Below, one piece after another: positions 2,327 to 62,000 of a stretch of DNA of 64,000 nucleotides. Origin of the DNA: a virus (Duplodnaviria; Heunggongvirae; Uroviricota; Caudoviricetes). How positions within the stretch are numbered: position 1 is the first letter of the stretch; every line of letters starts with the position of its first letter. The stretch lies in the IMG/VR virus record IMGVR_UViG_2721755710_000007, positions 1 through 64,000 of that record. One strand, 5' to 3'. A program made the translations under genes and the position numbers. The notes under the pieces are model-generated. The model ran no database searches, had not been told where the DNA came from, and saw only the letters and a program-made list of their open reading frames with translations.

Positions 2327-5300
2327 CTATATTTTTCCGCCTACGCCTTTAAACTTCTCAATAAACGAGACGATTTTCTGGAAAACTGCCTGTTTTTTCG
2401 TTTTATATTGCGGATTTAACGGACTAAGTTTTGGTAATGTTTCGTTTAATTCTGTGCCATTTTCGGTGGCATATTCGCGTTTTAAAGACGTGCGAATATA
2501 GCGTTTTGCTGCATCTTCATTGAGATTTTCTTCTTTTATCAATGCTTCTGCTTCACGTTGCTGTTCGCGTTGAGCAAACGTAAAGAATGCGTCAATGATG
2601 CTGGCTTTGTCCGGTAAATCATCCAGGTTCGTTTGCTGAATAAAATCGACCACCAGGCCCTCTTTAGCACGGTTCCCTAGGCTTGAACGAATTAAGCGTT
2701 TGACCTCTTCGATCATTTCGCCCTTGCCTTTATTTTGTCTGTTGTGTTCGAAAATCAGTCCAAGGATATAATCCAGGTTTATTTCCTGAGACTTCAGCAA
2801 ATCGACCTCAAAAACTACGTCATCCCAGTCAGTGGTTGATTTCTCTTTTTTCTCAGCTTCTTTCTCACGGCGCTGCCAGTCGCGAATATCGTTATAGGCA
2901 GAACGATAATCCTGAATCTTGCGATCAGCAGGGAGACGAATTGTTTGCAATTTAGCGAACTTTTCATCATCCACATAATGCTCTGCTTTGAATTTTTCTA
3001 CCGCAACAGGATCGCTAAGATCGATTTGTTGCAGGGCTTTTAGCGTGGCAAATTCATCATAGTTTTGCAGGATGTTCTCGGCACGCAGGTATTCGCCAAA
3101 CAGTTTAACGAAGTCTTTCTTCTCTTTTTCACTTTCAATACTGGTAGGGTCAGGGAACCGTTGTTCCAGTTCTGAAACTACTGTCATAAAGCCGCGTTTA
3201 GCTTCACCAGTAGCAGCATCAGTAAAGCCTTCCATATACTCTGTATAACTCTTTTCTAACACCACATTTTTGGTGTTTTTGTCACCAAACAGCGTTATGG
3301 CATCAATAGTTGAGCGTTCCAGATCCCGGAAAGTGACGATATTACCGAAGGTTTTAGTAGCGTCATAAATGCGGTTGGTGCGGGAAAATGCCTGCATCAG
3401 GCCGTGAAAACGCAAGTTTTTATCGACGAATAGCGTGTTCAATGTTGGAGCATCGAAGCCGGTTAAAAACATCCCCACGACGATTAACAAGTCAACATCC
3501 TGATTTTTAACCCGCTGAGCCAGGTCCCGATAGTAGTTCTGAAAACCCTTGCTATCAGTACTGAAATTCATTTGAAAATGGTCGTTATATTCACGAATTG
3601 CAGCATCCAGAAACTCTTTAGCACTGCTGTCCATTGCGCTGGTATCAAAAGTTTCATCGGAAATTTCACCAATGGCATTTTGTTCTTCATTAGCGGCAAA
3701 GGAGAAGATTGTCGCAACACGCAGCGGTTTATAGGTAGCCGATTTATTAGCGGCTTCTTCTTGTAACCGTTTAAACGTCGCATAATAGGCTTTCGCGGCA
3801 TCCACGCTGCTCACTGCCAGCATGGCATTAAAGCCTTTGGAGCCTGGGAAGGTACGGTGGGTTTTCTGGCGGAAGTTGTTCAGGATATATTGCGTGATTT
3901 CCTGAATACGCATGGGATGAAGAAACGCCTGCTGATTTTCAGCCGCACTCAGTTTTTTCTCGTCAGTTTCTGTCTCTAAAGACTTAAACTGTGGCCGCAC
4001 ATCGTTGTAGTCCACCTTGAATTTGAGCACTTTTTCGTCACGAATCGCATCGGTAATTACATACGAATGCAATTCACGACCAAATACGCTGGCGGTTGTT
4101 TCTGAGCCTAAGGCGTTTTCCGGGAAAATAGGGGTGCCGGTAAAACCAAACTGATAATAGCGTTTGAATTTCTTCTTCAGGTTTTTCTGCGCTTCTCCAA
4201 ACTGGCTGCGGTGGCATTCATCAAATATAAACACCACTTGCTGATTATATACAGGCAGGTCGCTTTCTGCTTTCATCAGATTATTGAGTTTCTGAATAGT
4301 AGTGACGATAATTTTGTTATCGTCCTTATCCAGATTTCGTTTAAGGCCTGCGGTATTTTCCGAGCCGTTGACGCTGTCTGGCGAAAAACGCTGATATTCC
4401 TTCATGGTCTGGTAATCGAGGTCTTTCCTGTCGACCACAAAGAAGACTTTATCAATAAAGTCCAGCTCTGTTGCCAGACGCGCGGCTTTAAAGCTGGTGA
4501 GGGTTTTACCAGAACCGGTAGTGTGCCAGATATACCCACCGCTTTCCGGTTTTGACCAGTTCTTCGCTGTAAAGGAACTCTTAATTTTCCACAGAATGCG
4601 CTCGGTGGCGGCAATCTGGTACGGTCGCATCACCAGTAGCGTCTGACTACTGTCAAAAACGCTGTAGTTCACCAGAACATTCAGCAGAGTATGTTTCTGG
4701 AAAAAGGTAGCGGTAAAGTCTTTGAGGTCTTTAATCAGCGTGTTGTCTGATTTCGCCCAATTCATGGTGAAGTCAAAACTGTTTTTATCGCGCTTTGTCG
4801 TGTTGGCAAAATAACGGGTATCGGTGCCGTTAGAAATGACAAACAGTTGCAGATACTTAAACAGGGAATTTTCGCTGTTAAAACTCTCTTTACTGTAACG
4901 ATGTATCTGGTTGAAAGCCTCACGAATCGCCACCCCGCGTTTTTTTAGTTCGATTTGCACCAGCGGTAAACCATTAACCAGGATCGTGACGTCATAACGA
5001 TTAGCATGAGAACCCGTCTGTTCAAACTGCTGGATAATCTGCACCTTATTGCGCATGAGATTCTTTTTATCTATCAAATAGATGTTCTCAAGTCGCTCGT
5101 CATCAAAAATAAAGTCGCAAATATAGTCGATATGGATTTTACGGGTCTTATCCAGAATGCCATCGCTCGGGTTGTCCAGATACTGCTCCGTGAAACGCCG
5201 CCACTCGCTGTCATTAAACACCACACCATTGAGGCTCTGAAGCTGTTGTCGAACATTGGCCAGCATCGCCGACTGAGATTTTACGGATATAAATTCATAG

Positions 5301-5564: not shown

Positions 5565-6164
5565 TTAATTACTGACAGTTTCAGGTTTCGGGAAACTGAA
5601 CAGTAAATCACGGTAGTATTCGTATTGTTTCTGGCGCAACTCGATTTCACGCGGAAGACCTTCGGTGATGGAGTTAGTCAGGGTGTCGAAATTATCCAGA
5701 ATCCGAACGATTTCAGACTGGATGGCAAGGGATTTTTCCGGATTATCCGGGCAGGGGATTGGGATTTTTTTTTGAGAATAATTACTAATCCATTGGCGTT
5801 TATGGTCTCCCTCTGCGAATTCACTTGGTAATGTATTGAGCCAATAGTAAACATATTTCAGTAAGGTTTTATTATCATCACATGATGTAACCATTTTCAT
5901 AGCCGATGATTTTGCCTTAAAGTCAAAATCCACCCATTTATTAGCGGTGGTGAAATCATCAAAAATTATTACAGGTGCCTTTGATGCCTGATAAATACCA
6001 TGAGTCTCATTTGTGTATCCAAGAATAAATGTTTTTCCGGCAGTAAGAACCGGGATGGTATATGTGTCGTGATAATCTTTTGCTTTTACCAAATACTTTG
6101 TTGGCTGTTCATATTTGGTTATTTCCCCCAATGGCAACCACTCAACCTCAACCCCATCCAGCAA
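5565..6164 (-). CDS. hsdS: Type I specificity subunit, half-size with one target-recognition domain (199 aa)
   Basis: 24 bp downstream of hsdM; C-terminal conserved HsdS helix (...ILDNFDTLTNSITEGLPREIELRQKQYEYYRDLLF); only one TRD fits. Confidence 0.7.
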   Translation of the reverse strand: MLDGVEVEWLPLGEITKYEQPTKYLVKAKDYHDTYTIPVLTAGKTFILGYTNETHGIYQASKAPVIIFDDFTTANKWVDFDFKAKSSAMKMVTSCDDNKTLLKYVYYWLNTLPSEFAEGDHKRQWISNYSQKKIPIPCPDNPEKSLAIQSEIVRILDNFDTLTNSITEGLPREIELRQKQYEYYRDLLFSFPKPETVSN

Positions 6165-6188
6165 TTTTTCCAGATAAACTTAACTCGC

Positions 6189-7751
6189 TCATTTTTGCAC
6201 CTCGCAGCCTTCAATTTCAGCCACAATCGCATCAATATCTTTACGCAACTGGTCGATTTTGCTGACCGTGGTTTTCAGCTCAGCATTCAGCTCAGCAATA
6301 TCGATAATTTCGCGGTTATCTTTCGCTTCCACATAGCTGCTCACCGACAGGTTATAGTCATTAGCAACAACGGTCTCAAACGCGACAGATTTCGCCAGAT
6401 GAGCAACATCTTCCTTGCTGGCAAATACCTGCATAATCTGTTCGATATGGGTATCGGTCAGGATATTGTTGTTAGTCTCTTTTTTGAACAGTTCGCTGGC
6501 GTCAATAAACTGAACGTTGGTATCCGTTTTATGTTTGGACAGAACCAGAATGTTTACTGCAATGGTGGTGCCAAAGAACAGGTTCGGTGCCAGTGAAATT
6601 ACGGTTTCGACATAGTTATTGTCAATCAGATACTGACGGATTTTCTGCTCCGCGCCGCCACGGTAAAAAATACCCGGGAAGCAAACAATCGCAGCACGAC
6701 CTTTGGCAGAAAGATAGTTCAGCGCATGTAGTACAAAGGCGAAGTCAGCTTTTGATTTGGGGGCCAGAACGCCAGCCGGGGCAAAACGCTCATCGTTAAT
6801 CAGTGTCGGGTCATCGCTGCCAATCCATTTCACCGAATACGGCGGGTTAGAAACGATGGCATCAAACGGTTTTTCATCTCTGAAGTGCGGCTCAGTCAGT
6901 GTATTACCCAGCCTGATATCAAACTTGTCGTAGTTGATGTTGTGCAAAAACATGTTCATACGCGCCAGATTATAGGTCGTATGGTTGATTTCCTGACCGA
7001 AAAAGCCTTCTTCGATGATATGGTTATCAAACTGCTTTTTAGCCTGCAACAACAGTGAGCCGGAACCCGCTGCCGGGTCGTAGATTTTGTTAACGTTGGT
7101 CTGCCCGTGCATAGCCAGTTGTGCAATCAGCCTGGAGACGTGCTGCGGTGTAAAGAACTCACCGCCTGACTTACCAGCATTCGCCGCATAGTTAGAAATC
7201 AGGAACTCATAGGCATCGCCGAACAGGTCAATCTGATGTTCGTTAAAGTCGCCAAGCTTTAAGCCTTCAACCCCTTTCAGGACCGCAGCCAGGCGGGCAT
7301 TTTTATCCTTAACGGTGTTACCCAGGCGGTTACTGGTGGTATCGAAATCAGCAAACAGACCTTTGATGTCTGCTTCTGAAGGATAACCGTAAGCAGAACT
7401 TTCGATAGCAACGAAGATGCTGTTTAAATCTGCATTCAGTCTGTCATTGGTATTTGCTTTCGCCGCTACGTTGCAGAAAAGCTGACTGGGGTAGATGAAG
7501 TAGCCTTTAGTTTTGATGGCATCGTCTTTAATATCATCAGTAATTACGCTGTCATCCAGTTTCGCATAACAGATACTGTCATCACCGGCTTCAATATAGC
7601 TGGAAAAATTTTCGCTGATAAAACGGTAGAAAAGTGCGCCCAGAACGTATTGCTTAAAATCCCATCCATCGACCGAACCCCTGACATCGTTAGCAATTTG
7701 CCAGATTTGACGATGAAGCTCTGCACGTTGTTGAATACTTGTCATTTTCAT
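6189..7751 (-). CDS. hsdM: Type I N6-adenine DNA methyltransferase M subunit (520 aa)
   Basis: NPPY catalytic motif ([10 protein letters not shown]), AdoMet-binding region, conserved HsdM N-terminus. Confidence 0.85.
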
Positions 7752-10411: not shown

Positions 10412-10970
10412 GTGACCTGGGACGATCACAAGAAGAATTTTGCTCGCCTGGCGCGAGATGGTGGTTACACCATCGCACAGTATGCCGCCGAGTTTAATCT
10501 TAACCCTAATACCGCACGTCGTTATCTCCGTGCCTTCAAAGAAGACACCAGGACAGCGGACAGCCGCAAGCCAAATAAGCCAGTCAGGAAGCCTCTAAAA
10601 AGCATGATCATTGATCACGCTAATGATCAACGTGCAGGTGATCACATTGTGGCTGAAATGGCTGAAAAACAAAGAGTTAATGCTGTTGTCAGTGCCGCAG
10701 TTGAGAACGCTAAGCGCCAAAATAAGCGCATAAATGATCGTTCTGATGATCATGACGTGATCACCCGCGCCCAGCCGCCGCGCTGATGCCGCATTGTGGA
10801 TTGAGCATCGTAGAGAAGAAATTGCCGATATCGTCGATACAGGTGGTTATGGTGATGTCGATGCGGAAGGCATATCAAACGAAGCATGGCTTGAACAGGA
10901 TCTGGACGAAGACGAGGAGGAAGACGAAGAAGTTACCCGCAAACTGTACGGGGATGATGATTAATGGCCA
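10412..10970 (+). pseudogene. pacA: pacA, terminase small subunit, shortened and frameshifted
   Basis: N-terminal 124-codon ORF (10412-10786) with HTH-like start; acidic C-terminal tail (...[15 protein letters not shown]) is in another frame from about 10761; total about 180 codons. Confidence 0.6.
10605..10763 (+). other. pac packaging site (hexamer repeats with Dam GATC sites)
   Basis: Four TGATCA hexamers at 10605-10644 and three TGATC(A/G) at 10735-10763, the 4+3 arrangement of the P1 pac site. Confidence 0.8.
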
Positions 10971-33177: not shown

Positions 33178-33455
33178 GTGACCTCCTGATGTGAAATCAC
33201 TATACCGAAGTGGTTTTTATTTTTTTTCACAAACAGGACTTTTTTCAGTGATTTTTTTCTGAGAATTATGAGGGGCGTGTCGTTGGTGCGATGCATACCG
33301 ATAGTGAATAACACCAGATGAGCTCGGGAACGGCATAGCGGGGTGTACTTATGTTCGGCAGAAAAGTAGCTTTTTCTGCAATGGGTATTCCTGATCCGGT
33401 GATTTGAAAAGTGCTGTTTTACTTACTAAGTTATACATATATCTAGTGCCACTTT

Positions 33456-33612
33456 TTAATCAAAAGTGACCCTAGGTTTTTTGCGCATAGTGCCACTTTT
33501 TAAAAAAGTGACCCTATGTCCTGTCTACATAGGGTCACTTTTCACAAAGAAGTGACCCTATGTCGAGGCTCCATAGGGCCACTTTTCAGCAAAAAGTGAC
33601 CCTATGTAATAG
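33456..33612. repeat. array of four tandem palindromic units (core AAAAGTGACCCTATGT / ACATAGGGTCACTTTT)
   Basis: Units begin near 33456, 33489, 33527, 33571; each has 12-14 bp inverted arms around a short spacer. Confidence 0.8.
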
Positions 33613-34189
33613 CCATTGTTAATCAATCGGAAAAATATTCATGCTAGCTCGCTCTTATCGCTAAGGTTATTGCTGCTTTCTGCCGATAACAGTGCAAGTT
33701 TTGCGATTTTTTTAAGCGCTTCACAGTTCGTTAGCAAGCTCAGTTTTTTTTGATAAAATTCTGGTCAGTTTGTTTAAAAAGTGTTACAAGTAAGGCGAAT
33801 GGTTGAATGGTTAGTTTTAAGACTCAAATCGGCAGTATTAAAATTCCAAAAGTAGCTTTTCATACTTCAAAAAACCAAACTTTAATTTCATGTAGAAGAG
33901 TTGTACTATTGTATTGACTCAAGGACAATCCGACATGTCAGAATCAGATAACATAACGCGTAACTATTACGTACCGAGGTTTCGATTATTCGTAGTTACC
34001 GTGCATTCCTAATGTTATTGCCTATCCATGATCTTCTTCGTATCAATCAGGGTCTCCACTCTTGCAACGCCGTCTATTTGGAGACGGATTTGGGACAATG
34101 ACTGATAATGCATTTGAAGTTGAAACTCGTCCGGGAAGTTTCCTCGTTCCACGTTCTTTAGGCAAAGAGATTTCCTGGGATAATTTTTT

Positions 34190-34720
34190 ATGGCTGTTGT
34201 CGATGGTGACACTAACGTTATTCGAGAATATGACAGTGACGATGCTGACTTCGGTATTTACAATGCTGGGGAAAAAGTTACTTTACTGTGTGGCCGGGAA
34301 GACTTTTATAATCCGACAAAAATTCAGCAGTTACGCTCTAAGTGTGTAGATATACAAAATGATTACTTTATTCAAATCTTCTTTATGTCAATGCTTGCAC
34401 CTGAGTTTGTCAGCATATTTTTTGGATTAAAGCCTGCCACCGCAGATGCAATAAAAGATGTTGGCGTTTCATCACTTAAAGCAATTAACGATGTTGTTCT
34501 CTTTCCGCGAACAATTGCCTTTACGCCAGGACTGGGGGATGATAGCACTACGTTAAAATCTAAAGTATTCGCCAGGGCATACGAATTATCTGCCGACATT
34601 CGTTTGGGTAAAGTTAGTGATGACTTAATGGAACTACTGCGTTACGACACTATGTTTACGTGTCACCGTCAGGATGTGTTTAACTCATTAGCAAATAAAG
34701 TGCTCTTGAAGGATTATTGA
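34190..34720 (+). CDS. hypothetical protein, 176 aa (an upstream out-of-frame ORF 34062-34349 may be a frameshifted N-terminus)
   Basis: ORF divergent from the two-gene operon; ends 7 bp before IS1 copy 3. Confidence 0.4.
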   Translation: MAVVDGDTNVIREYDSDDADFGIYNAGEKVTLLCGREDFYNPTKIQQLRSKCVDIQNDYFIQIFFMSMLAPEFVSIFFGLKPATADAIKDVGVSSLKAINDVVLFPRTIAFTPGLGDDSTTLKSKVFARAYELSADIRLGKVSDDLMELLRYDTMFTCHRQDVFNSLANKVLLKDY

Positions 34721-34726
34721 ATATGG

Positions 34727-35494
34727 GGTAATGACTCCAACTTATTGATAGTGTTTTATGTTCAGATAATGCCCGATGACTTTGTCATGCAGCTCCACCG
34801 ATTTTGAGAACGACAGCGACTTCCGTCCCAGCCGTGCCAGGTGCTGCCTCAGATTCAGGTTATGCCGCTCAATTCGCTGCGTATATCGCTTGCTGATTAC
34901 GTGCAGCTTTCCCTTCAGGCGGGATTCATACAGCGGCCAGCCATCCGTCATCCATATCACCACGTCAAAGGGTGACAGCAGGCTCATAAGACGCCCCAGC
35001 GTCGCCATAGTGCGTTCACCGAATACGTGCGCAACAACCGTCTTCCGGAGACTGTCATACGCGTAAAACAGCCAGCGCTGGCGCGATTTAGCCCCGACAT
35101 AGCCCCACTGTTCGTCCATTTCCGCGCAGACGATGACGTCACTGCCCGGCTGTATGCGCGAGGTTACCGACTGCGGCCTGAGTTTTTTAAGTGACGTAAA
35201 ATCGTGTTGAGGCCAACGCCCATAATGCGGGCAGTTGCCCGGCATCCAACGCCATTCATGGCCATATCAATGATTTTCTGGTGCGTACCGGGTTGAGAAG
35301 CGGTGTAAGTGAACTGCAGTTGCCATGTTTTACGGCAGTGAGAGCAGAGATAGCGCTGATGTCCGGCGGTGCTTTTGCCGTTACGCACCACCCCGTCAGT
35401 AGCTGAACAGGAGGGACAGCTGATAGAAACAGAAGCCACTGGAGCACCTCAAAAACACCATCATACACTAAATCAGTAAGTTGGCAGCATCACC
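34727..35494 (-). mobile_element. IS1, copy 3
   Basis: Identical to copy 2, same orientation, with insA/insB ORFs (35164-35439, 34742-35245). Confidence 0.95.
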
Positions 35495-49873: not shown

Positions 49874-51601
49874 TTACTCAGAGTCACCGGCATCAATCGT
49901 GTCGCCGCTAATGAAGTTAAGCCCGCCTTTTTTGGCCATTGTCAGCGTTACACGAGTGAAGTAATCAGCGCCGTTGCGTGGGTGCATATCGTTGATAGCC
50001 GAACCCCACAGCGTGGTACGGTTGACCAGCGCCGGAGTGGTCGGATGCTGGAACGGGATGGCCGGGACAGCATCACCAGTCACGAAGCCTGCTTTACCCG
50101 GATTTTCATCACGGACGTAGCACAGCACATCCATCGAGCTGAACTGAATGTTCTCTGTCGTTAAGTTCTTACAAATACCAGCAGGTACTTCGTACACTTT
50201 CACGTTACCGAACAGGGTACCGATGTAGTGAACATACGGAGTCTGGATATAGTCTTCGGCTGGCTGGAAGAAATCCTTCGGCAACTGTTTGAAGAAAGAT
50301 GCTGCATCAGCACCAGCAAACATCCCCATCGCACCAGAAGATTTAACGCGCTCAATAATGTCGCGATATACAGTCTGGAATTTGCCACGAATGATGGTTG
50401 CCCATACATCAAAGGACTGGTTAACCGGCAGAGCGATGTCAAAGGTATCGGTCGCAAGAGTACGCCAGATCATGATGCGGAGACGCAACATATCCTGTTC
50501 ATGGGACAGGTATTCTTTCAGGGTGCGGAACTGTAGGGAACCCAGGTCCAGACCAAATTCACGCTGTGCTTCATACGCCGCCTGTACCGTGTGCTCAGCC
50601 GCGATAACGAACTGGCTTGGGAACAGGGTGTATTTCTTCATTTCGTGGTTGATCAGCGGGATCAGCTCAGGAGCGGCTTCAATATTGATTTCCGTCTCAA
50701 TTGCGATCTCAGTGCCTTTATCCGGCGCTTTGGAGAACGACAGGGCAATCTGACCAATGTTGTAGTTCAGAGAGCAGGTAACAGTGATTTGCTCACCAGC
50801 AGCATTAGTAAACGAGTGAAGTAGGCTGCCGGAACCGTTATCAACAACAGACTTAATACGGTTAACGTAGATGTTAGTACGACCTTTTCGGATTGGTACA
50901 TTCTGGCCTTCGAAGTCTTCCATCTTGAAGGTTGCGGTTTTGCTGGTGCCATCGGAGCTTGCCACCAGCACATAGCGGCGACGTAACTGGCTGTACACAC
51001 CGACGGATTGCATGTCCAGAACATCACCAGCAGCATAAGAACCAAAAGAGGAACCTGCCACGTTAAAGACTTCATAGATGTCGGACTGGTCACGCGTAAC
51101 CGGAATGAAGGTACACGCATCAGCGGTAGCTGCCCCCAACTGAACCGGCAGGATCATCGCGAGGAATAAAGGCAGACGCATAACACCGTCAGAAACGCTC
51201 ATCATCTCTGCTGCGACGGATTCCAGCATCGCTTTATTAGTGGCATCCATGCTATTGCGGGTGGACTCAATCAGGCAGTTTTCCAGCGTCTGGTGGCAGG
51301 AGGCCAGAATTTCCGGACGCGGCATAGATTTATGTGCTGCGGCGTAGTCAGCCAGTGCACTTGCCCACGCTGTAGCGATTTGAGCGGTGGCATTATCAGA
51401 GATACCCGCAAAAACCGGGTCTTTACGTGCAGCTTCAAGGATAGATGCGGCACGCGCGGCATCATCTTTAATGAATTGGTTATCAGTACCGAACTGCGCA
51501 GTGCTTGCCCAGCCAAGCACAGCTTTAGAGCGTTTTGCGATATCTGCAATACGATTCTGGTATTCGCGTAAGTTACTCAATTTACTCTTCCTTAAACACA
51601 A
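49874..51601 (-). CDS. major head protein-like (up to 575 aa)
   Basis: Large ORF immediately before parB, as P1 gene 23. Confidence 0.5.
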   Translation of the reverse strand: MCLRKSKLSNLREYQNRIADIAKRSKAVLGWASTAQFGTDNQFIKDDAARAASILEAARKDPVFAGISDNATAQIATAWASALADYAAAHKSMPRPEILASCHQTLENCLIESTRNSMDATNKAMLESVAAEMMSVSDGVMRLPLFLAMILPVQLGAATADACTFIPVTRDQSDIYEVFNVAGSSFGSYAAGDVLDMQSVGVYSQLRRRYVLVASSDGTSKTATFKMEDFEGQNVPIRKGRTNIYVNRIKSVVDNGSGSLLHSFTNAAGEQITVTCSLNYNIGQIALSFSKAPDKGTEIAIETEINIEAAPELIPLINHEMKKYTLFPSQFVIAAEHTVQAAYEAQREFGLDLGSLQFRTLKEYLSHEQDMLRLRIMIWRTLATDTFDIALPVNQSFDVWATIIRGKFQTVYRDIIERVKSSGAMGMFAGADAASFFKQLPKDFFQPAEDYIQTPYVHYIGTLFGNVKVYEVPAGICKNLTTENIQFSSMDVLCYVRDENPGKAGFVTGDAVPAIPFQHPTTPALVNRTTLWGSAINDMHPRNGADYFTRVTLTMAKKGGLNFISGDTIDAGDSE

Positions 51602-51719
51602 GGCACTTGTGTGAATCCCTTTTCGGAAGAGATTTTATTGAAAGTCACTTGTTGACTTTCTCGCTAAAAGTAATTTTTTAAATTTTTTGTGCGGGGGAGG
51701 GGGGCAAGTAAAACAGGCG

Positions 51720-51846: not shown

Positions 51847-52812
51847 TTATTCCCCAGCAGACATTTTCCCAATGATTTTTTTTATTGCTTCGTCAATTTC
51901 AGTTTGCACTTCAGACGGGAGTCTGGAGAACTCGTAGGCGACAACCCGTTTTTTCGGATCGGACTTCTTTCGGGCATATTGGCGACGGTCAGAGAAGTCT
52001 CGCAGCTTCTCAACCACCACAGATTTAACCGGCGCGGGCTTCAGGCTTTTGCTTTCCGCTTTGAAGATAGCCAGTATCTTCGCTTTATCCTCTTTCGCGC
52101 CCTCAGTCTCTGCAATTCGTTCGCGCACCGTATCAACCAGCTCTTCAATCGGCACGCTTTTAGCGTTAGCATCCTCGGCGATCTGGAGCAGTAACTGGTA
52201 ATCTGGAAGGGCGAGCTCGCTGGCTACGGGGAAGACAGCAATCATCTCATCCGGCACCGCGGCAGCCTGGAAAGCTCGCGTCACTTTAGCCTTTGAGATG
52301 TTCTCAGCTCGGGCGATCTCTTCTTTGGTCATATTCTTACCGTACATAACCTCGAAGCGTTTACCCAGCTCGCGCAGAGTGTGTTCGCGGGCTGTCTGGA
52401 TATCAATGGCCAGCTGGCGGGCATCCGCCAGGCTGATCTCATCTTTCGTCACCAGAATCTCAAATTTCGTTTCATTGAAGATACACGCAGCACGGCGACG
52501 CGATCCGTCCAATACCTCAATGCGCTCCCCAACCATACGACCGATAGCCGGGAAGAACTGTTGCAATTTAATGGTGCGGGAAATATCGCTTACCGACTCA
52601 GGGGTGAGCAGAGACTGATCGCGGCCGTTAACTGCCGGGTCAACGAACGTGCGCGACTCAATCTCACCACTCAGCACGACGGTAAGCAAGAATTTAGCCT
52701 GGCGGCCAGATTTTAGGGTAAAGGTTTTGGTGCCTTCACTGCCTTCAAGCATGCGAGCAAACTCGGAGCTATTCTTGCCCAGCACTCGTCCACGGGAAAC
52801 TATTTTTTTCAT
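51847..52812 (-). CDS. parB: ParB partition protein (321 aa)
   Basis: ParB motifs (ILDGSRRR, KVTRA); overlaps parA stop. Confidence 0.85.
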   Translation of the reverse strand: MKKIVSRGRVLGKNSSEFARMLEGSEGTKTFTLKSGRQAKFLLTVVLSGEIESRTFVDPAVNGRDQSLLTPESVSDISRTIKLQQFFPAIGRMVGERIEVLDGSRRRAACIFNETKFEILVTKDEISLADARQLAIDIQTAREHTLRELGKRFEVMYGKNMTKEEIARAENISKAKVTRAFQAAAVPDEMIAVFPVASELALPDYQLLLQIAEDANAKSVPIEELVDTVRERIAETEGAKEDKAKILAIFKAESKSLKPAPVKSVVVEKLRDFSDRRQYARKKSDPKKRVVAYEFSRLPSEVQTEIDEAIKKIIGKMSAGE

Positions 52813-54020
52813 GCCGCCTCACCCCTAACAAACTCAATTCGATCAAACACAGCCTTAGTGAAACGCTCGGCCTCGGTTCGTGCCTTCTTCAGCGCCTCTG
52901 CACTGCCTGGATACGATTGCGGGTTGGCACTGATTACGGTGTCGAAAGACTCGCCGCATCGCTCAAATCCATCCAGACGAGGCAGAGAAGAGTCCAGAAT
53001 GTTGCTGGCGTAAACCTCACGCGCAAGGCTGTGTGATGTCTCGTGATCGCGCTTGCCGGTCATCTTCGACATAAAACCAATGCTGGCGCTTAAACGCGGT
53101 TCTACGCCTTCCTCCTCCAGTTGCTCCAGCATTTCTGGCAGACGGGTGAGATATTTCAGTGTTGAGTGGAAGTCAACCTGGGCTGGTGGGGTAGGGGTAA
53201 GCAGCAAATCGCTGGCCGCCAGACCGTTGAGCAGGAACGGATCCAGGTGTGGACCGGTATCAATAAAGATAAAGTCATAATCATCCGCAACACGATCAAT
53301 GATATTGCGTCGAAGGATTTCGTACTGATTTTGTCCGGGAAGATGCTCTTCAACCAGCTCTTTCCATTGGCTGGCAACAAAGCCATCGTCGATAGAGGCT
53401 GGAATCACGTCTACGCCAGGAACGATGGTCGGACGAATCACCTCTTTGCGTAGCGTCTCCGCGTCCAGGTCGTTCAGCATCGCCTGCGCGGCGGTTTCCA
53501 GGATGGAACCAATACTGTGAGTATGGTCGAGGAACATTGTGCTGGATGCCTGAGGGTCAAGGTCAATTACCAGAATGCGCAGATCGTGACGCAGTAAATC
53601 CTGATGCACACGCAGAGCGTGCGCCAACGTGACTGTGGAAACCGTTTTGGATACGCCACCCTTCAGGTTTACGACAAAAATAACGTAAGGCGATTTGTGA
53701 ATGTCGCGATATTTTGGGATCTTACGGTGGGCATAGATATCAATGACGTTCTGGATGGTCAGCGCGTACTGTTCAACGTTACCGACCTGTTTCTTGTTGA
53801 ACTGGTACCCATCATCTTCCATCTCTTTGATGGCCTGCTCCACAATGCGGCGGCTCAGCTTCGGCAACTTTGCCACAGCGTTACGAGTGAACGTCTGATA
53901 ATACTCGGTCTGATTGAACTCTTTGCGCTGATCTTCAATATCCTGGCTCATGGCCTTAAGTAATGCGCTTGCACGAAGAGCTATGGTGCCGACACCGCCG
54001 TAATCGCGTTTCATCATCAT
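52809..54020 (-). CDS. parA: ParA partition ATPase (403 aa)
   Basis: Deviant Walker A (NLKGGVSKT) and strong resemblance to P1 ParA. Confidence 0.9.
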   Translation of the reverse strand: MMMKRDYGGVGTIALRASALLKAMSQDIEDQRKEFNQTEYYQTFTRNAVAKLPKLSRRIVEQAIKEMEDDGYQFNKKQVGNVEQYALTIQNVIDIYAHRKIPKYRDIHKSPYVIFVVNLKGGVSKTVSTVTLAHALRVHQDLLRHDLRILVIDLDPQASSTMFLDHTHSIGSILETAAQAMLNDLDAETLRKEVIRPTIVPGVDVIPASIDDGFVASQWKELVEEHLPGQNQYEILRRNIIDRVADDYDFIFIDTGPHLDPFLLNGLAASDLLLTPTPPAQVDFHSTLKYLTRLPEMLEQLEEEGVEPRLSASIGFMSKMTGKRDHETSHSLAREVYASNILDSSLPRLDGFERCGESFDTVISANPQSYPGSAEALKKARTEAERFTKAVFDRIEFVRGEAA

Positions 54021-54129
54021 CTCCTTATCATTTCGTATGAGTGAATTGTACGTTTGATTCTGCTACGTGCAACTTTTTTTGATTCGTGCGTCAATTATTG
54101 CACGTAAAGAAATGGCGATGAGGCTATTA

Positions 54130-55331: not shown

Positions 55332-55560
55332 TTCCCGTCAGCACACATCCTATATCCCGCCAGCACACATTAGCAACCCGTCAGCACACATTTTTATCCC
55401 GCCAGCACACATCGTTTTCCCGCCAGCACACATCGCGATACACTTCTAGGCCAGACGTGGCGCGGCCTGCAACGATCAGGGATCTATATGGATCTAATTG
55501 GGATCTGTATGGACCTAATTATTGGATCTATCCAGTGGATAATGTGGATAAGTGAAAAAC
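55332..55560. repeat. incC iterons and oriR (plasmid replication origin)
   Basis: Five iterons (cc[cg]tcagcacacat), then five GATC-containing heptamers and DnaA boxes (tgtggataa). Confidence 0.85.
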
Positions 55561-55592
55561 CGGCCAACAAAGCCGGTTGGAAGGAAGCTGTA

Positions 55593-55985
55593 TTATTCTA
55601 TGCTTTCGATGAGAAGACCATGTTCATAACATTTAAGCTCATCGCCTTCGTACAGGAATTGGTATCCAATACCACCATCTTCATGGACATTAGGGAATAA
55701 CTCATAACTCACTGAAGAGCAAATCACACCAATACAGCGATCAACGCCTTCTCGTTCTTCAGTGCTGAAAAAATCCTCTTCGGTAAGAACATGAGTACAT
55801 TGCTCATCAGCATAGGTCGGAAATACATGCTCAATGCAATCCGGGTGTTTTAAACCAAGCTGATCGGCAAGCTCGAAAGCACGACGGTATTGTTCAGATC
55901 CTGGCTTGCCAACAGTGATTTGCTCAATTTTGTAGATTGAAGTCGCTTTGTTGATAGTTTGCTTTACTGTTACTTTATCAGACAT
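55593..55985 (-). CDS. hypothetical protein (130 aa)
   Basis: ORF downstream of the spanin-like pair. Confidence 0.4.
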   Translation of the reverse strand: MSDKVTVKQTINKATSIYKIEQITVGKPGSEQYRRAFELADQLGLKHPDCIEHVFPTYADEQCTHVLTEEDFFSTEEREGVDRCIGVICSSVSYELFPNVHEDGGIGYQFLYEGDELKCYEHGLLIESIE

Positions 55986-55996
55986 AAAAATCCCTT

Positions 55997-56329
55997 TTAG
56001 TTACCGCTAATAGCTCGGTTGTAATCATTAACGTTGCGATTCTTCCTGTTAATCCCCATCAGCATCGTTTCTGTATCGAGGATATACGCTGGCAGATCAT
56101 CAAAATATTCACTGCTAAACTCTGGCATCCTGCACATAAATGCACTTTTTGGGTCAGGGTGGTTAACCTTTGTCGGCGTCGGCGTTAAATTCGCTGATCG
56201 ACTCCCGGAGCAACCGCTGAGTGTCAGCAGGAATACGCTGGCGAACATTACCCGCCGCAACCAGTTGTTTCTGAACTTCAGCTTTTCGTTCCATTTGCCT
56301 GTCAGCATATTTGGCTTGTTCTGATTCAT
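55997..56329 (-). CDS. candidate outer-membrane spanin (Rz1-like lipoprotein, 110 aa)
   Basis: Lipobox LSGC, Pro-rich (TPTPTKVNHPDP); overlaps the upstream gene out of frame. Confidence 0.5.
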   Translation of the reverse strand: MNQNKPNMLTGKWNEKLKFRNNWLRRVMFASVFLLTLSGCSGSRSANLTPTPTKVNHPDPKSAFMCRMPEFSSEYFDDLPAYILDTETMLMGINRKNRNVNDYNRAISGN

Positions 56330-56612
56330 TTTTCACTTCCTGGCTGTGAAAATGTTGCTCTGCTTTGTTCATCGTCTCAATGGTCTGGTTAAGATCCATT
56401 ATTGACTTATCACGTTCCTTAACAGCCTGATCAAGACTGCCAATTTTCTCCATGGCTTGCTTTAGCTGATGACGTTCCCATGCAAACCCAGCACCAACAA
56501 GTGCGCAAATCAGAACAAGAACACCAGTAGCAGCAAGTTTCTCCTTCAAAGACAAAGCTGTTTTTAACGTAGAAAAGAATGACATGTCTTCCTCCTGAAG
56601 AAAAATTATCAA
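56163..56612 (-). CDS. candidate inner-membrane spanin (Rz-like, 149 aa)
   Basis: N-terminal transmembrane helix then coiled coil; 167-bp overlap with the lipoprotein gene. Confidence 0.5.
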   Translation of the reverse strand: MIIFLQEEDMSFFSTLKTALSLKEKLAATGVLVLICALVGAGFAWERHQLKQAMEKIGSLDQAVKERDKSIMDLNQTIETMNKAEQHFHSQEVKNESEQAKYADRQMERKAEVQKQLVAAGNVRQRIPADTQRLLRESISEFNADADKG

Positions 56613-56624
56613 TGAAGTCCTTTG

Positions 56625-57413
56625 TTACTGTGCCGCTTTGTTTAATTCATCAAGAACTGAATCAGGAACCAAAGCGGCAACTGCGCTGGCTGTGCTGGCC
56701 TTATTTGCTGATGCTTCCGCAAGCGCGGTACCGATAGCATGGTTATAAGCAGTTATGGCTACGTTGGCGCTTTCATTCGCTCGTTCATACTGCTGTTGTA
56801 ACGCAGTTGTGGGCGCTGTTGTCTGGTTGAAAACAACCCCAAACTGTTCAGTTGCTACTTTCAGAGATTCAATTTGCTCTTCTGTTAGTGCTGGTGGGGG
56901 AGTGGCAGTGCCGCCGCCTGAACCAGAGCCTGACGAGCTTCCTGAGCCAGTGTTAAGGGTCTGGTTAATCTCCCCCATAGCAGCGACTAAACTTGATGTA
57001 TTAAGCGCGTTAACAGCGTCCTCAAGCGATTTAGTAATATTCACATTACCAATGGCAATAGAGATCGGCAGTTCTGAAACTTCTCGCTCATTAGCACGGC
57101 AGTAAACATCCCAACCAATATCGAGTTGAAGCAGCATTGACAGATCTGCATAACCAGCCAACAGGTCCGCGTGCTTAGTTGCCAGTTCTCCAATGTTCGT
57201 TAAGCCGGTTGTGGTTGTTCTGATCGTTGAAACATAGCTGGTAATAGTGTCGGGATAGACAATGGTATCCAGAATTAATCCGGTCAATTCTTCTGCAAGC
57301 AGTTTTGCTGTGTTAGCACTGTTTCGTGCCGATGTTATGGCACCAGGTGTTTTCATCCCACCGGCGGCGGCCAATTTTTTATATGCGGATAACTGGTAGT
57401 CTTTTTCCAGCAT
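56625..57413 (-). CDS. hypothetical protein (about 262 aa from internal Met; ORF-track entry extends to 57470)
   Basis: Ser/Gly/Thr-rich linker; no clear motif. Confidence 0.4.
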   Translation of the reverse strand: MLEKDYQLSAYKKLAAAGGMKTPGAITSARNSANTAKLLAEELTGLILDTIVYPDTITSYVSTIRTTTTGLTNIGELATKHADLLAGYADLSMLLQLDIGWDVYCRANEREVSELPISIAIGNVNITKSLEDAVNALNTSSLVAAMGEINQTLNTGSGSSSGSGSGGGTATPPPALTEEQIESLKVATEQFGVVFNQTTAPTTALQQQYERANESANVAITAYNHAIGTALAEASANKASTASAVAALVPDSVLDELNKAAQ

Positions 57414-57421
57414 GATATCTC

Positions 57422-57706
57422 CTAACTTACCTGAACCAGGCCGTCTCCGGACGCTACGGTAGATCCGCATGAAACAGGGTCACCAACGCATACGATCCCT
57501 TTACCATTGACGGTAAACCATGCCCTGGTTGATATAGCTTGCCCACCGTGCGTACTGTTTCCATCGGTATGCTGTGCATATTGCTTACCATCAACTAACA
57601 CTTCGACTCCGTTGACTTTAAGTAGTGGTTCACTCTCTACAGGAGGCCTGGATGGGAATCCTCCGTGCCCCGAACAAATGCTGTCTTTTGTTGCAATACT
57701 TGCCAC
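57422..57706 (-). CDS. PAAR-like small protein (94 aa)
   Basis: Gly/Cys/His pattern (CSGHGG, VNGKGIVCVGDPVSCG) reminiscent of PAAR spike-tip domains. Confidence 0.4.
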   Translation of the reverse strand: MASIATKDSICSGHGGFPSRPPVESEPLLKVNGVEVLVDGKQYAQHTDGNSTHGGQAISTRAWFTVNGKGIVCVGDPVSCGSTVASGDGLVQVS

Positions 57707-57787
57707 GCCATCACCAATTATTTGCTCTGATTTTCGTTATTTTAACTTAGGTTATTTGTGGTCTGTATGGCGTTTACTTATTACAAA

Positions 57788-59058: not shown

Positions 59059-62000
59059 AAGAGCTGTGCTATGGATCTGTTTGCAGTGGAATTGAAGCCG
59101 CGAGTATTGCCTGGGAACCGTTGGGTATGCGTCCGGTTTGGTTTGCTGAAATCGAGCCTTTTCCATCGGCCGTTCTTGCGCTCCGCTGGCCCCATGTCGC
59201 CAACCTTGGCGACATGACAAAACTTGCCAAAAAAGTCTAGGCTGGGGAAATCGAATCCCCTGACGTGCTCGTCGGGGGAACACCATGTTTTACCGCGGGG
59301 CATATGGTTCTTTGTAAAAATGGTTATAAACCAATAGAAGATATTTGCCCTGGCGATTACGTAGTCAGTCATCTCGGGCGGTTACAACAAGTAAAAAGAG
59401 TTGGTTCAAAAATAGCTAATACGGGGTTACTTAATGCCGTTGGGCAGCCTTTAGGTATAAGAACAACCAATGACCATCCCTTCCTGGCGGTTCGGTGGAA
59501 AGCCCAAAACACCCGGAAAAATGGCACATATTTTAAGAGAGAGTTGTTGTCTGAACCGGAATGGCGAGCAGCATGTGATATGCCGGGATATCAATGGTGC
59601 GCTCTAACTAATTTCAATATTGCATCTCCAGATATTTGTTCTCGGTTCTTGTCTGAAGAACAGGCTATGTATCTTGCGGGCGCTTATGTTGGCGATGGAT
59701 ATATTAGGAGATGGAGAGGTAAATCTAAGAAGGCGGTTGTTTTTGGCATAAATTGCCAGAAATTGAGAAAGTTTCATTGCCGCATACCAGAAAACATATT
59801 TTCCGTGGCAAGCGAAATCCGAGGGAGCATCAAAGTAACCTTGAATGATACGTGTTATGCCAATTGGCTTAATGAACATTTTGGCGAGTTAAGCCATGCT
59901 AAGCGTATCCCTGCATGGGTGATGTCGCATCCATTGCGTCATGTGTTTTTACAAGGCTATCTTGATACTGATGGGACACCAAGTGGTAAAGCGGGATTTA
60001 GAATTAATAGTGTTAGTCCTGCGCTTGCTTGGGGCGTTGCGGGGTTGTCACAGACTTGTGGTTATGTTTCTTCGGTCAGCTTTATTGAAGTTGAGCCCAA
60101 AAAAGTGATCGAGGATCGCGTGGTAAATCAACGGAATTATTATCAGGTAACAATCTGCCCGCAGAAATTGTCACGTAAATCAAGATTGGCTCATGGAATG
60201 CTTTTACGAACAGTCAAAGAGTTTAAATCGGTAGGCCTAGATACTGTATACAACATAGAAGTCGAAGGTGATCATTCCTATATCCTCAATGGTGCGGTGG
60301 TCCATAACTGTCAGGCATTCAGTATCGCGGGATTACGTGGTGGGCTTGATGATGAGCGTGGCGCGCTAACTTTAAAGTATGTGGAGCTTGCAAATGCAAT
60401 TGACGACAAACGGGCTGAGTCATTTCTCAAACCAGCCGTTATCGTCTGGGAAAATGTCCCAGGAGTCTTGTCATCGGCAGATAACGCCTTCGGATGTTTC
60501 CTTGCCGGATTGGCTGGAGAAGATGCGCCATTTGAACCAGGTGATCGACCTGAATCAGGAAAAAGTAACGCGTTCTGGCGGTGGGATGGCAAAACCGGTT
60601 GCCATGCTCCAAAGTGGCCGCAGTGTGGTTGTATTTATGGGCCGCAGCGAAAGGTGGCCTGGAGAATCCTTGATGCCCAATACTTCGGAGTGGCACAACG
60701 ACGCCGACGCGTGTTTGTTGTCGCAAGTGCTCGAACAGACCTCGATCCCGCAACGGTACTTTTTGAGTTCGAAGGCGTGCGCCGGAATATTGCGCCGAGC
60801 CGAAAAAAGAAGGAAATCGCTTCCGCCATTACTGCAAATGGCGCTGCAATCAGTGGCGAAAGCCTAAATCCATGCCTACACGCTGGCATGTCCCCCGGTA
60901 TGAAATCGACGAAAGCCGTAAACGGTTTCAGGATGGCGGCATTTGGGGAATATATTGACGATGAAACCGCATCGACAGTAAAGGCAAGAGACTTTAAAGA
61001 TGCCACTGACCTTGCTGTTTTTAGCAGCACAGGAGCAGGTTTTTGGTCAGAAGGGCATGGTACATTGCGGGCTCGTGAGCAAGAAAGCCATGAGCATCTT
61101 GTTACATTGGCTTTTCCTGAGCGTATGAGCGGTACACAACATGCTGCAACTAAGAATACTTCACCATCTCTAATGGCTAAAAATCCAACAGCTGTTTGCT
61201 ATGAAGTAAGAAACGCAGAAGTAGCTGTCCGCCGTCTTACCCCTGTCGAATGTGAAAGGCTGCAAGGTTTTCCTGATGGGCATACGTTGATCCCGACGGA
61301 AAAGCGTAAAAAAGTTAATTCAGATGAACTGGCATATCTTCGCAATCACTATCCAGATTTAAGCGAAGAAGAGGCCGCGATGCTTGCAGCTGACGGACCG
61401 CGTTACAAAGCGATCGGCAATAGTATGGCAATACCAGTAATGCGCTGGATTGGCGATCGGATTACTAAGGCCGTATGTCGGCAGAAAGAAGGAAGTGAAA
61501 CAAAAGAGCGAAAAGTTAAACCAGCGGCAGAATTCGAACGGTCCATATTCAAATGGGCTGGTGGAAAATTTGGTGTTCTGGAACAAATCTTTCGCTATTT
61601 GCCAGAAGGGAAGCGCCTGATTGAACCTTTCGTCGGTGGTGGAGCTGTCTTCATGAATGCCGGATACCAGGAAAATCTGCTAAATGATGTGAATGCTGAC
61701 CTGATTAACTTTTACAAGACTCTGCAACGCGAGGCGCATTCACTTATCACTCTGGCTCATCGTTTCTTCTTGGACTACAACACCCAGGAGGGATTCCTGG
61801 CAGTACGGAATGCGTTTAACAAACAAGTCTATGATGATTTACATCGCGCAGCGGCGTTTTTGTTCCTGAACCGACATTGTTTTAACGGATTGACGCGTTA
61901 CAACCAGGCCGGTGAGTTCAATGTCGGTTATGGGAAGTATAAAACTCCGTATTTCCCATTACAGGAGATGGAAGCCTTCCTCGGTGCGGAAGGTCGTTCT

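Follow-up and report, generated by a model that had tools for sequence, protein, structure and literature searches.

We examined a pair of overlapping genes at positions 55997 to 56612 of a 64,000-nucleotide stretch of viral DNA (IMG/VR record IMGVR_UViG_2721755710_000007, positions 1 to 64,000; this whole stretch is called the window below). The pair is very probably ppfA/mlp of phage P1, a two-component spanin of overlapped architecture in which PpfA would be the inner-membrane spanin (i-spanin) and Mlp the outer-membrane spanin (o-spanin). The region is 99.3% identical in DNA to phage P1 positions 63257-64057 (NC_005856), which hold mlp (gp063) and ppfA (gp064). The PpfA of the window is identical or 99.3% identical to PpfA of the P1 group, and its Mlp is 98.2% identical to P1 Mlp. 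Three amino-acid differences separate the pair from the P1 reference (PpfA I45M, Mlp S7N and Mlp A59D), and the two share locus, neighbours, start codons, ribosome-binding sites, overlap and lipobox. In P1, the genes lie between upfA, oriR, repA, incA and parA on one side and upfB, upfC, uhr, hrdC and dmt on the other, and the order in the window is the same. What distinguishes the window from P1 is the element that carries the pair, a deletion derivative without the remaining P1 lysis genes.

The pair is already known. Bednarek 2022 (PMC9025707) describes the P1 spanin genes as partly overlapping and lying in yet another unlinked operon, and credits Summer 2007 with identifying them by predicted features. 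Kongari 2018 (PMC6139136, Table S1) tabulates P1 gp064/gp063 as an i-spanin/o-spanin pair marked "ovl" (overlapped), with a gp064 of 140 amino acids (aa) that has no periplasmic Cys and a gp063 of 110 aa that has one. The papers that cite the pair also record its distance from the other P1 lysis genes and its place by repA/oriR. In RefSeq, mlp carries the label "Rz-like spanin", and Rz/Rz1 is the name of the pair in several P1-like records of GenBank. An earlier note on this DNA, made from the letters alone, had described a spanin-like pair located by the plasmid replicon rather than in a lysis cassette, in agreement with the literature on the same P1 genes. The labels are swapped in Bednarek 2022, which calls ppfA the o-spanin and mlp the i-spanin.

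Gene structure

The features of the pair are as follows.

56163..56585, minus strand: ppfA, predicted i-spanin of 140 aa (open reading frame (ORF) and start codon), with an N-terminal transmembrane helix and then a helical periplasmic domain
55997..56329, minus strand: mlp, predicted o-spanin (ORF, ATG at 56329), a 110-aa precursor of a 71-aa mature outer-membrane lipoprotein
56163..56329, minus strand: dual-coding overlap of 167 nt, covering PpfA residues 86-140 and Mlp residues 1-56, with mlp in the +1 register
56591..56596, minus strand: ppfA Shine-Dalgarno sequence AGGAGG, upstream of the ATG; also listed in Kongari 2018 Table S1
56338..56341, minus strand: mlp Shine-Dalgarno sequence AGGA, within ppfA and 8 nt upstream of the mlp ATG, as in Kongari 2018 Table S1
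56481..56537, minus strand: codons of the predicted PpfA transmembrane segment (residues 17-35; hydropathy 2.35), within AlphaFold2 helix 13-110
56210..56221, minus strand: codons of the Mlp lipobox L-S-G-C (residues 37-40), Cys40 being the predicted lipidated residue

Both ORFs of the earlier note are present on the minus strand, at 55997-56329 (110 aa, from an ATG) and 56163-56612 (149 aa, from a TTG), and they overlap out of frame as it had described. The 149-aa length it gave for the larger protein corresponds to the maximal ORF, from TTG 56612 to 56163, and is not the likely product. Nine codons past this TTG, ATG 56585 opens a frame of 140 aa. Because AGGAGG precedes ATG 56585, and because the P1 record and Kongari 2018 use this codon, it is almost certainly the start of ppfA, and TTG 56612 is not. 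The mlp frame continues for 166 nt beyond the ppfA stop, which places the pair in the overlapped class of spanin genes, that of P2 lysB/lysC.

Membrane anchor, sorting signal and family membership

PpfA has a single strongly hydrophobic segment, residues 17-35 (LAATGVLVLICALVGAGFA), with a mean Kyte-Doolittle hydropathy of 2.35. The N-terminus ahead of it is short and contains Lys (K8, K14 and K16). This is the single N-terminal transmembrane domain of a type II inner-membrane protein that is expected of an i-spanin. An AlphaFold2 model built from a 12-sequence alignment placed a helix at residues 13-110, a linker at 111-119 and a second helix at 120-137, with a mean predicted local distance difference test (pLDDT) score of 70, which is moderate confidence. 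In one 28-residue window of PpfA, seven of the eight a/d heptad positions were hydrophobic, a score equalled in 8 of 500 shuffles. PpfA thus has the predicted helical, coiled-coil periplasmic domain with a linker that an i-spanin should have, at a pLDDT of only 70, and its sub-threshold Pfam matches were all to coiled-coil families. The transmembrane segment, the helix-linker-helix model and the heptad pattern together bear out the earlier description of a membrane-anchored coiled-coil protein.

Mlp consists of a basic 27-residue N-terminus, a hydrophobic core and the lipobox L-S-G-C40. The residues ASVFLLTLSG ahead of C40, which continues as C-S-G, fit the PROSITE PS51257 residue pattern, and the Cys is conserved in all relatives, in line with the description of the smaller protein as a lipoprotein. 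The residue at +2 is Ser, which predicts sorting to the outer membrane; Asp at this position, the signal for inner-membrane retention, is absent. A lipobox with an invariant Cys and no Asp at +2 is what an o-spanin requires. No alternative internal start of mlp was conserved among the relatives compared, and because of this the 39-aa signal peptide looks genuine. The proline richness that had been ascribed to the lipoprotein amounted to a mild enrichment, with 6 prolines in the 71 residues of mature Mlp (8.5%) against 10 in 40 in lambda Rz1. A Pfam search assigned no family to Mlp. In the Mlp homologues of the Salmonella/Klebsiella clade (L092, L093, ~4370-4385), the lipobox reads L-N-A-C or L-N-G-C; Asn at -2 lies outside the PS51257 set and raises a question about the efficiency of lipidation there.

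Profile searches against PHROGs tied both proteins to spanin families. PpfA matched phrog_89 over nearly its full length (1.5e-25), and Mlp matched phrog_30284 (2e-77) and, weakly, phrog_456 (1.7e-4), with 'Rz-like spanin' as the annotation of PpfA's family and of both Mlp families. P2 LysB is a strong member of phrog_89 (5.8e-61), while P2 LysC belongs to phrog_456 (1.7e-31) and cross-matches phrog_30284. In a direct BLASTP comparison, Mlp and P2 LysC were 37% identical over 68 aa (pairwise E 3e-7), with the second Cys conserved in a C-x-M-P motif.

The pair resides in a deleted P1-like plasmid

Apart from IS1-associated differences, the window is ~99.9% identical to the E. coli IncY plasmid p22Q34-2 (NZ_ON934557.1), which carries aph(6)-Id, aph(3'')-Ib, sul2, dfrA14, floR, qnrS1 and tet(A) outside the window region. 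The element lacks a 31.5-kb stretch of the intact P1-like genome MH422554 (positions 5766-37287), which comprises most of darB, prt (portal), pro, lyz, lydA-lydE, the dar operon, cin, tail fibres, baseplate genes and most of sit. In its place is ~11.3 kb of IS1/IS3-flanked cargo at window positions 24181-35477, which includes an autotransporter gene and mobI, according to the annotations of the near-identical p22Q34-2. Searching by tblastn with P1 Lyz, LydA, LydB, LydC, LydD, LydE, DarA, portal, Pro and Ssb returned nothing in the 64-kb window or in the whole of p22Q34-2. The possibility that the window is an intact colinear P1 was rejected in view of the 31.5-kb deletion and the lack of P1 lysis and portal proteins. 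Its gene content marks the host element as a P1-like IncY phage-plasmid reduced by deletion, which cannot lyse cells or make virions.

The earlier note had remarked that no endolysin or holin is adjacent to the pair, and the tblastn result is stronger than that, since none was found anywhere in the window. The absence has two causes. Even intact P1 has its lysis genes spread across four loci, with lyz ~43 kb and lydA/lydB ~32 kb from ppfA/mlp, and this element has deleted all the others. Here the pair is probably an idle passenger with nothing to act on, and it most likely persists through its tight linkage to the replicon, as it lies within 0.7 kb of oriR. The window plasmid can be classed as a non-lytic, non-packaging phage-plasmid remnant that carries resistance cargo.

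Three further differences were seen elsewhere in the element. At ~10771-10777, the window lacks 635 bp of p22Q34-2 (record positions 110274-110908), with a 7-bp overlap at the junction. The loss falls inside a 397-aa gene between lpa and the terminase gene, probably pacA, and would give the packaging machinery a second inactivating lesion. The partition genes (window 52809-54020 and upstream) had no megablast match to P1 parA/parB; the P1 alignment starts at 54127, and the incA-repA-oriR-upfA-mlp region beside the par genes does match P1. This suggests, from the alignment pattern, a different par specificity type and mosaicism at the par/rep boundary. Finally, ~1 kb at window 59288-60309, at the hrdC/dmt junction, had no megablast match to P1. 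The Dam-family methyltransferase of p22Q34-2 is 1025 aa long compared to 754 aa for P1 Dmt, and the ~60%-identical clade described below has an extra 191-aa gene there.

Annotation of the pair in such plasmids is uneven. The Prokaryotic Genome Annotation Pipeline (PGAP) annotation of p22Q34-2 (NZ_ON934557.1 56417-56548) has a 43-aa 'hypothetical protein' that starts at Mlp Met68, and MH422554.1 (57202-57342) has a 46-aa 'Rz1' that, like the PGAP call, loses the Mlp signal peptide and lipobox. Across hundreds of P1-like resistance plasmids, automatic pipelines cut mlp to 43-46 aa and leave ppfA mostly "hypothetical".

Conservation of the replicon-adjacent position

Homologues of PpfA were confined to P1-like phage-plasmids: 19 phage records, 630 PLSDB plasmids and at least 80 IMG/VR contigs, with a further clade, ~60% identical, in Salmonella, Cronobacter and Klebsiella. 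A word-indexed search for distant PpfA homologues in ordinary lysis cassettes returned only P1-like proteins, and scans of GTDB genomes and of IMG/VR for distant homologues returned only 96-100% identical copies. Exhaustive profile searching across 1.84 billion representative proteins contributed only three further full-length matches, all of them distant (P0077, P0085 and P0094). P0085 was not found in IMG/VR. P0077 was located in L098, a much more divergent 94-kb P1-like viral contig (IMGVR_UViG_2871745582_000001) that keeps the module, at 6001-6607. In L098 a PAAR gene is followed by upfB and then by genes for a PpfA-like protein of 151 aa and an Mlp-like lipoprotein of 109 aa, which overlap by 179 nt. 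About 2 kb downstream of the pair is a Rep3-type replication gene, with a gp49_66-like gene and a gene of 318 aa in between.

The upfC-upfB-ppfA-mlp-replicon arrangement was therefore kept in the ~60%-identical clades and in L098, that is, in all of the divergent P1-like elements examined. Because of this, the position beside the replicon is an old, stable feature of the P1-like lineage and not an oddity of the window. The study of JL22 (PMC9603915) likewise lists mlp and ppfA among the 21 extremely conserved genes of 54 P1-like plasmids. By rough counts in PLSDB, taken from separate lists, PpfA at 90% identity or more occurs in ~623 plasmids and P1-type Lyz at 80% or more in ~506. The difference suggests that non-lytic remnants are common among P1-like plasmids.

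Expression, proposed function and a possible non-lytic role

The genes and signals around the pair are listed below.

57422..57706, minus strand: upfC, PAAR-motif protein, first gene of the leftward cluster (Pfam PAAR_motif 8.5e-6; phrog_281; NF033420 4.5e-9)
56625..57470, minus strand: upfB, 281 aa, upstream gene in the same orientation
55593..55985, minus strand: upfA, downstream gene of the same apparent transcription unit
57717..57745, minus strand: sigma-70-like promoter match just upstream of upfC, weak, a consensus match only
56627-56653 and 56843-56872, inside upfB: predicted sigma-70 promoters P1ppfA and P2ppfA of the P1 record, coordinates transferred via ungapped alignment
55558..55578, minus strand: terminator-like hairpin and T-run just after upfA, before oriR

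The pair does not lie in a holin-endolysin cassette, the location that is typical of spanins and not obligatory for them; its flanks are upfA/oriR/repA and upfB/upfC. The maximal upfB ORF overlaps the 3' end of upfC by 49 nt. UpfC resembles T4 gp5.4 as well as the PAAR proteins of type VI secretion. The cluster thus seems to bring a predicted virion spike-tip protein together with a lysis function in one operon that has no recognisable late promoter. A simple promoter scan gave no more sigma-70 sites than expected from shuffles, and it did not recover the annotated P1ppfA and P2ppfA. A P1vir transcriptome preprint yielded no data for ppfA or mlp.

Taking the mechanism from the established lambda Rz/Rz1 spanin model, we infer for PpfA and Mlp their localisation, a complex that crosses the periplasm, and membrane fusion after endolysin action. 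PpfA would insert in the inner membrane by its N-terminal helix, with the long helical rod reaching into the periplasm. Mlp would be exported, receive its lipid at Cys40 and move on to the outer membrane. The two would then bind via their periplasmic ends to form a bridge restrained by the peptidoglycan mesh. Once the P1 holins and the signal-arrest-release (SAR) endolysin Lyz have destroyed the wall, the freed complexes would fuse the inner and outer membranes and complete lysis. The place beside repA/oriR would be the native, conserved position of the pair in P1-like phage-plasmids. By analogy with that model, we also infer that early or constitutive synthesis of the spanin would be tolerable, as the complexes should be inert until the wall is degraded.

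Several results weigh against the assignment of ppfA/mlp as a P1 spanin. At the level of the proteins, the signal peptide of Mlp, at 39 aa, is atypically long and fails the PROSITE positional rule; Kongari 2018 (PMC6139136) comments on gp063 in Table S1 "Too long signal sequence" and gives position 39 as its LipoP cleavage site. Unlike lambda Rz, PpfA lacks periplasmic cysteines, and a Pfam search assigned it to no family. Comparisons of PpfA with known i-spanins were not significant, whether by BLASTP against P2 LysB (E 57) or lambda Rz (E 0.26) or by hhalign of the 12-sequence PpfA alignment against the single LysB sequence (probability 1.3%), and the NCBIfam model TIGR03495 (LysB) scored 19 bits on PpfA against a cut-off of 92.75. 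The sequence tie between PpfA and LysB is the PHROG profile phrog_89. At the level of expression, a P1 late-promoter pattern that we built from LPpro, LPlyz and LPdar, with a 9-bp element at -22 and a -10 hexamer, matched 12 sites in the window (4.8 expected), but none of them falls within the upfC-upfA cluster or close to it, and lysis-timed expression of the pair is therefore not evident. At the level of function, the P1 spanin genes have not been verified experimentally, according to Bednarek 2022 (PMC9025707). In a genome-wide CRISPR interference (CRISPRi) screen (PMC10695390), the plating efficiency was 1.3/1.2 for ppfA and 0.24/0.19 for mlp, and both genes were scored non-essential, the knockdown efficacy for the ppfA-mlp operon behind these scores being not known; lambda Rz was essential in the same study. 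As a further caveat on these scores, Bednarek 2022 notes that shaken laboratory cultures can lyse without spanins.

The late-promoter pattern had only two perfect matches in the window, at 51570-51588 (plus strand) and 51632-51650 (minus strand). They lie back to back ~60 bp apart, upstream of the par operon region, and look like a divergent late-promoter pair.

A different role for the pair could account for part of this. The proteins might serve the envelope in the prophage-plasmid state, through phage exclusion, envelope tethering or plasmid fitness, and be expressed from sigma-70 promoters in lysogens. Such a role would account for the place by the replicon and for retention in elements that cannot lyse, of which the window, with its intact pair and no endolysin, is one. 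It would also fit the promoter predictions near the operon, which are of the sigma-70 type and include no late-promoter motif, the CRISPRi knockdowns of ppfA and mlp that gave no plating phenotype, and the excess in PLSDB of plasmids with PpfA over those with P1-type Lyz. We nevertheless consider it very unlikely. The pair has the full spanin architecture and is probably related to P2 LysB/LysC, which belong to a lysis cassette, and linkage to repA/oriR explains its retention more simply. The deletions are recent, because the DNA is 98-100% identical to that of intact P1-like phages; many laboratory conditions do not require spanins; and the PLSDB counts come from lists that were not cross-matched record by record.

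A broader form of this idea holds that lysis is not the sole, or not the main, task of the pair, and that sigma-70 expression in the plasmid-prophage state brings a selectable envelope or plasmid-maintenance benefit. We regard this as very unlikely. If true, such a benefit would explain why the pair has stayed attached to the replicon in divergent P1-like lineages, and why it survives in those ppfA-bearing plasmids, about one-fifth of them all, that seemingly lack a P1-type endolysin. We retain the reading of ppfA/mlp as the probable P1 spanin pair, left without an endolysin or holin in this element.

Selection on the two frames

Substitutions were analysed by codon position against four P1-like loci whose proteins are ~60% identical to those of the window (Cronobacter phage JK004, a Klebsiella aerogenes contig, a Salmonella contig and one further contig). 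In the segment past the ppfA stop, where only mlp is encoded, the third mlp codon position was substituted at 26-30 of 55 sites, compared to 7-13 for the first and second positions. This third-position bias indicates that the lipoprotein frame is under purifying selection, as judged from the substitution pattern. Within the overlap, the substitutions track the wobble position of ppfA, and the C-terminus of PpfA therefore appears to be the constrained partner there, while the n-region of the Mlp signal peptide drifts. The first ATG of mlp, the lipobox Cys40 and a second Cys66 (motif F-M-C-R-M-P) were conserved in every relative. By the substitution analysis both frames are under selection, and the arrangement is also conserved in L098.

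That ppfA alone is real and the overlapping frame of 110 codons is a chance, untranslated ORF is extremely unlikely: gene callers often omit or truncate mlp (to the 43-aa PGAP ORF in p22Q34-2 and to 46 aa in MH422554) and its signal peptide is atypically long, but the third-position bias past the ppfA stop contradicts a chance ORF and led us to reject it, the frame is open in five lineages down to ~35-60% identity with its ATG, lipobox Cys and second Cys conserved, and mlp has an AGGA ribosome-binding site and similarity to P2 LysC.

Comparison with P2 LysB/LysC and lambda Rz/Rz1

The earlier note had called the pair the classic Rz/Rz1 arrangement and proposed comparing it with known spanin pairs. 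That comparison relates Mlp to P2 LysC and ties PpfA to LysB via phrog_89. An overlapping spanin-like pair is indeed present; its layout is of the overlapped and not the embedded type.

The likeness to lambda Rz/Rz1 is general. Both pairs combine a type II inner-membrane helical protein with an outer-membrane lipoprotein encoded in the +1 register, and the membrane-fusion role is presumed to be common to them. The differences are more specific. Lambda Rz1 is wholly embedded in Rz, whereas mlp extends 166 nt beyond ppfA. Rz and Rz1 belong to phrog_13 and phrog_3198, compared to phrog_89 and phrog_30284 for PpfA and Mlp. Proline makes up 25% of lambda Rz1 (10 of 40 residues) and 8.5% of mature Mlp, and lambda Rz has periplasmic cysteines whereas PpfA has none. 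The pair therefore falls outside the embedded Rz/Rz1 family.

P2 lysB/lysC, in contrast, have the overlapped layout of ppfA/mlp, with the lipoprotein gene in the +1 frame running past the i-spanin stop. The P2 products are 141 and 96 aa long, compared to 140 and 110 aa for PpfA and Mlp, and the two pairs have PHROG families in common. They differ in the signal peptide, which is much longer in Mlp than in LysC, and in their surroundings. The P2 lysis cassette has the order Y (holin), K (endolysin), lysA, lysB, lysC, so that lysB/lysC directly follow holin, endolysin and lysA in one late operon, whereas ppfA/mlp lie tens of kb from P1 lyz and the holin genes. On the profile matches and the gene layout, ppfA/mlp is best described as a putative distant relative of the P2 LysB/LysC type, not of lambda Rz/Rz1.

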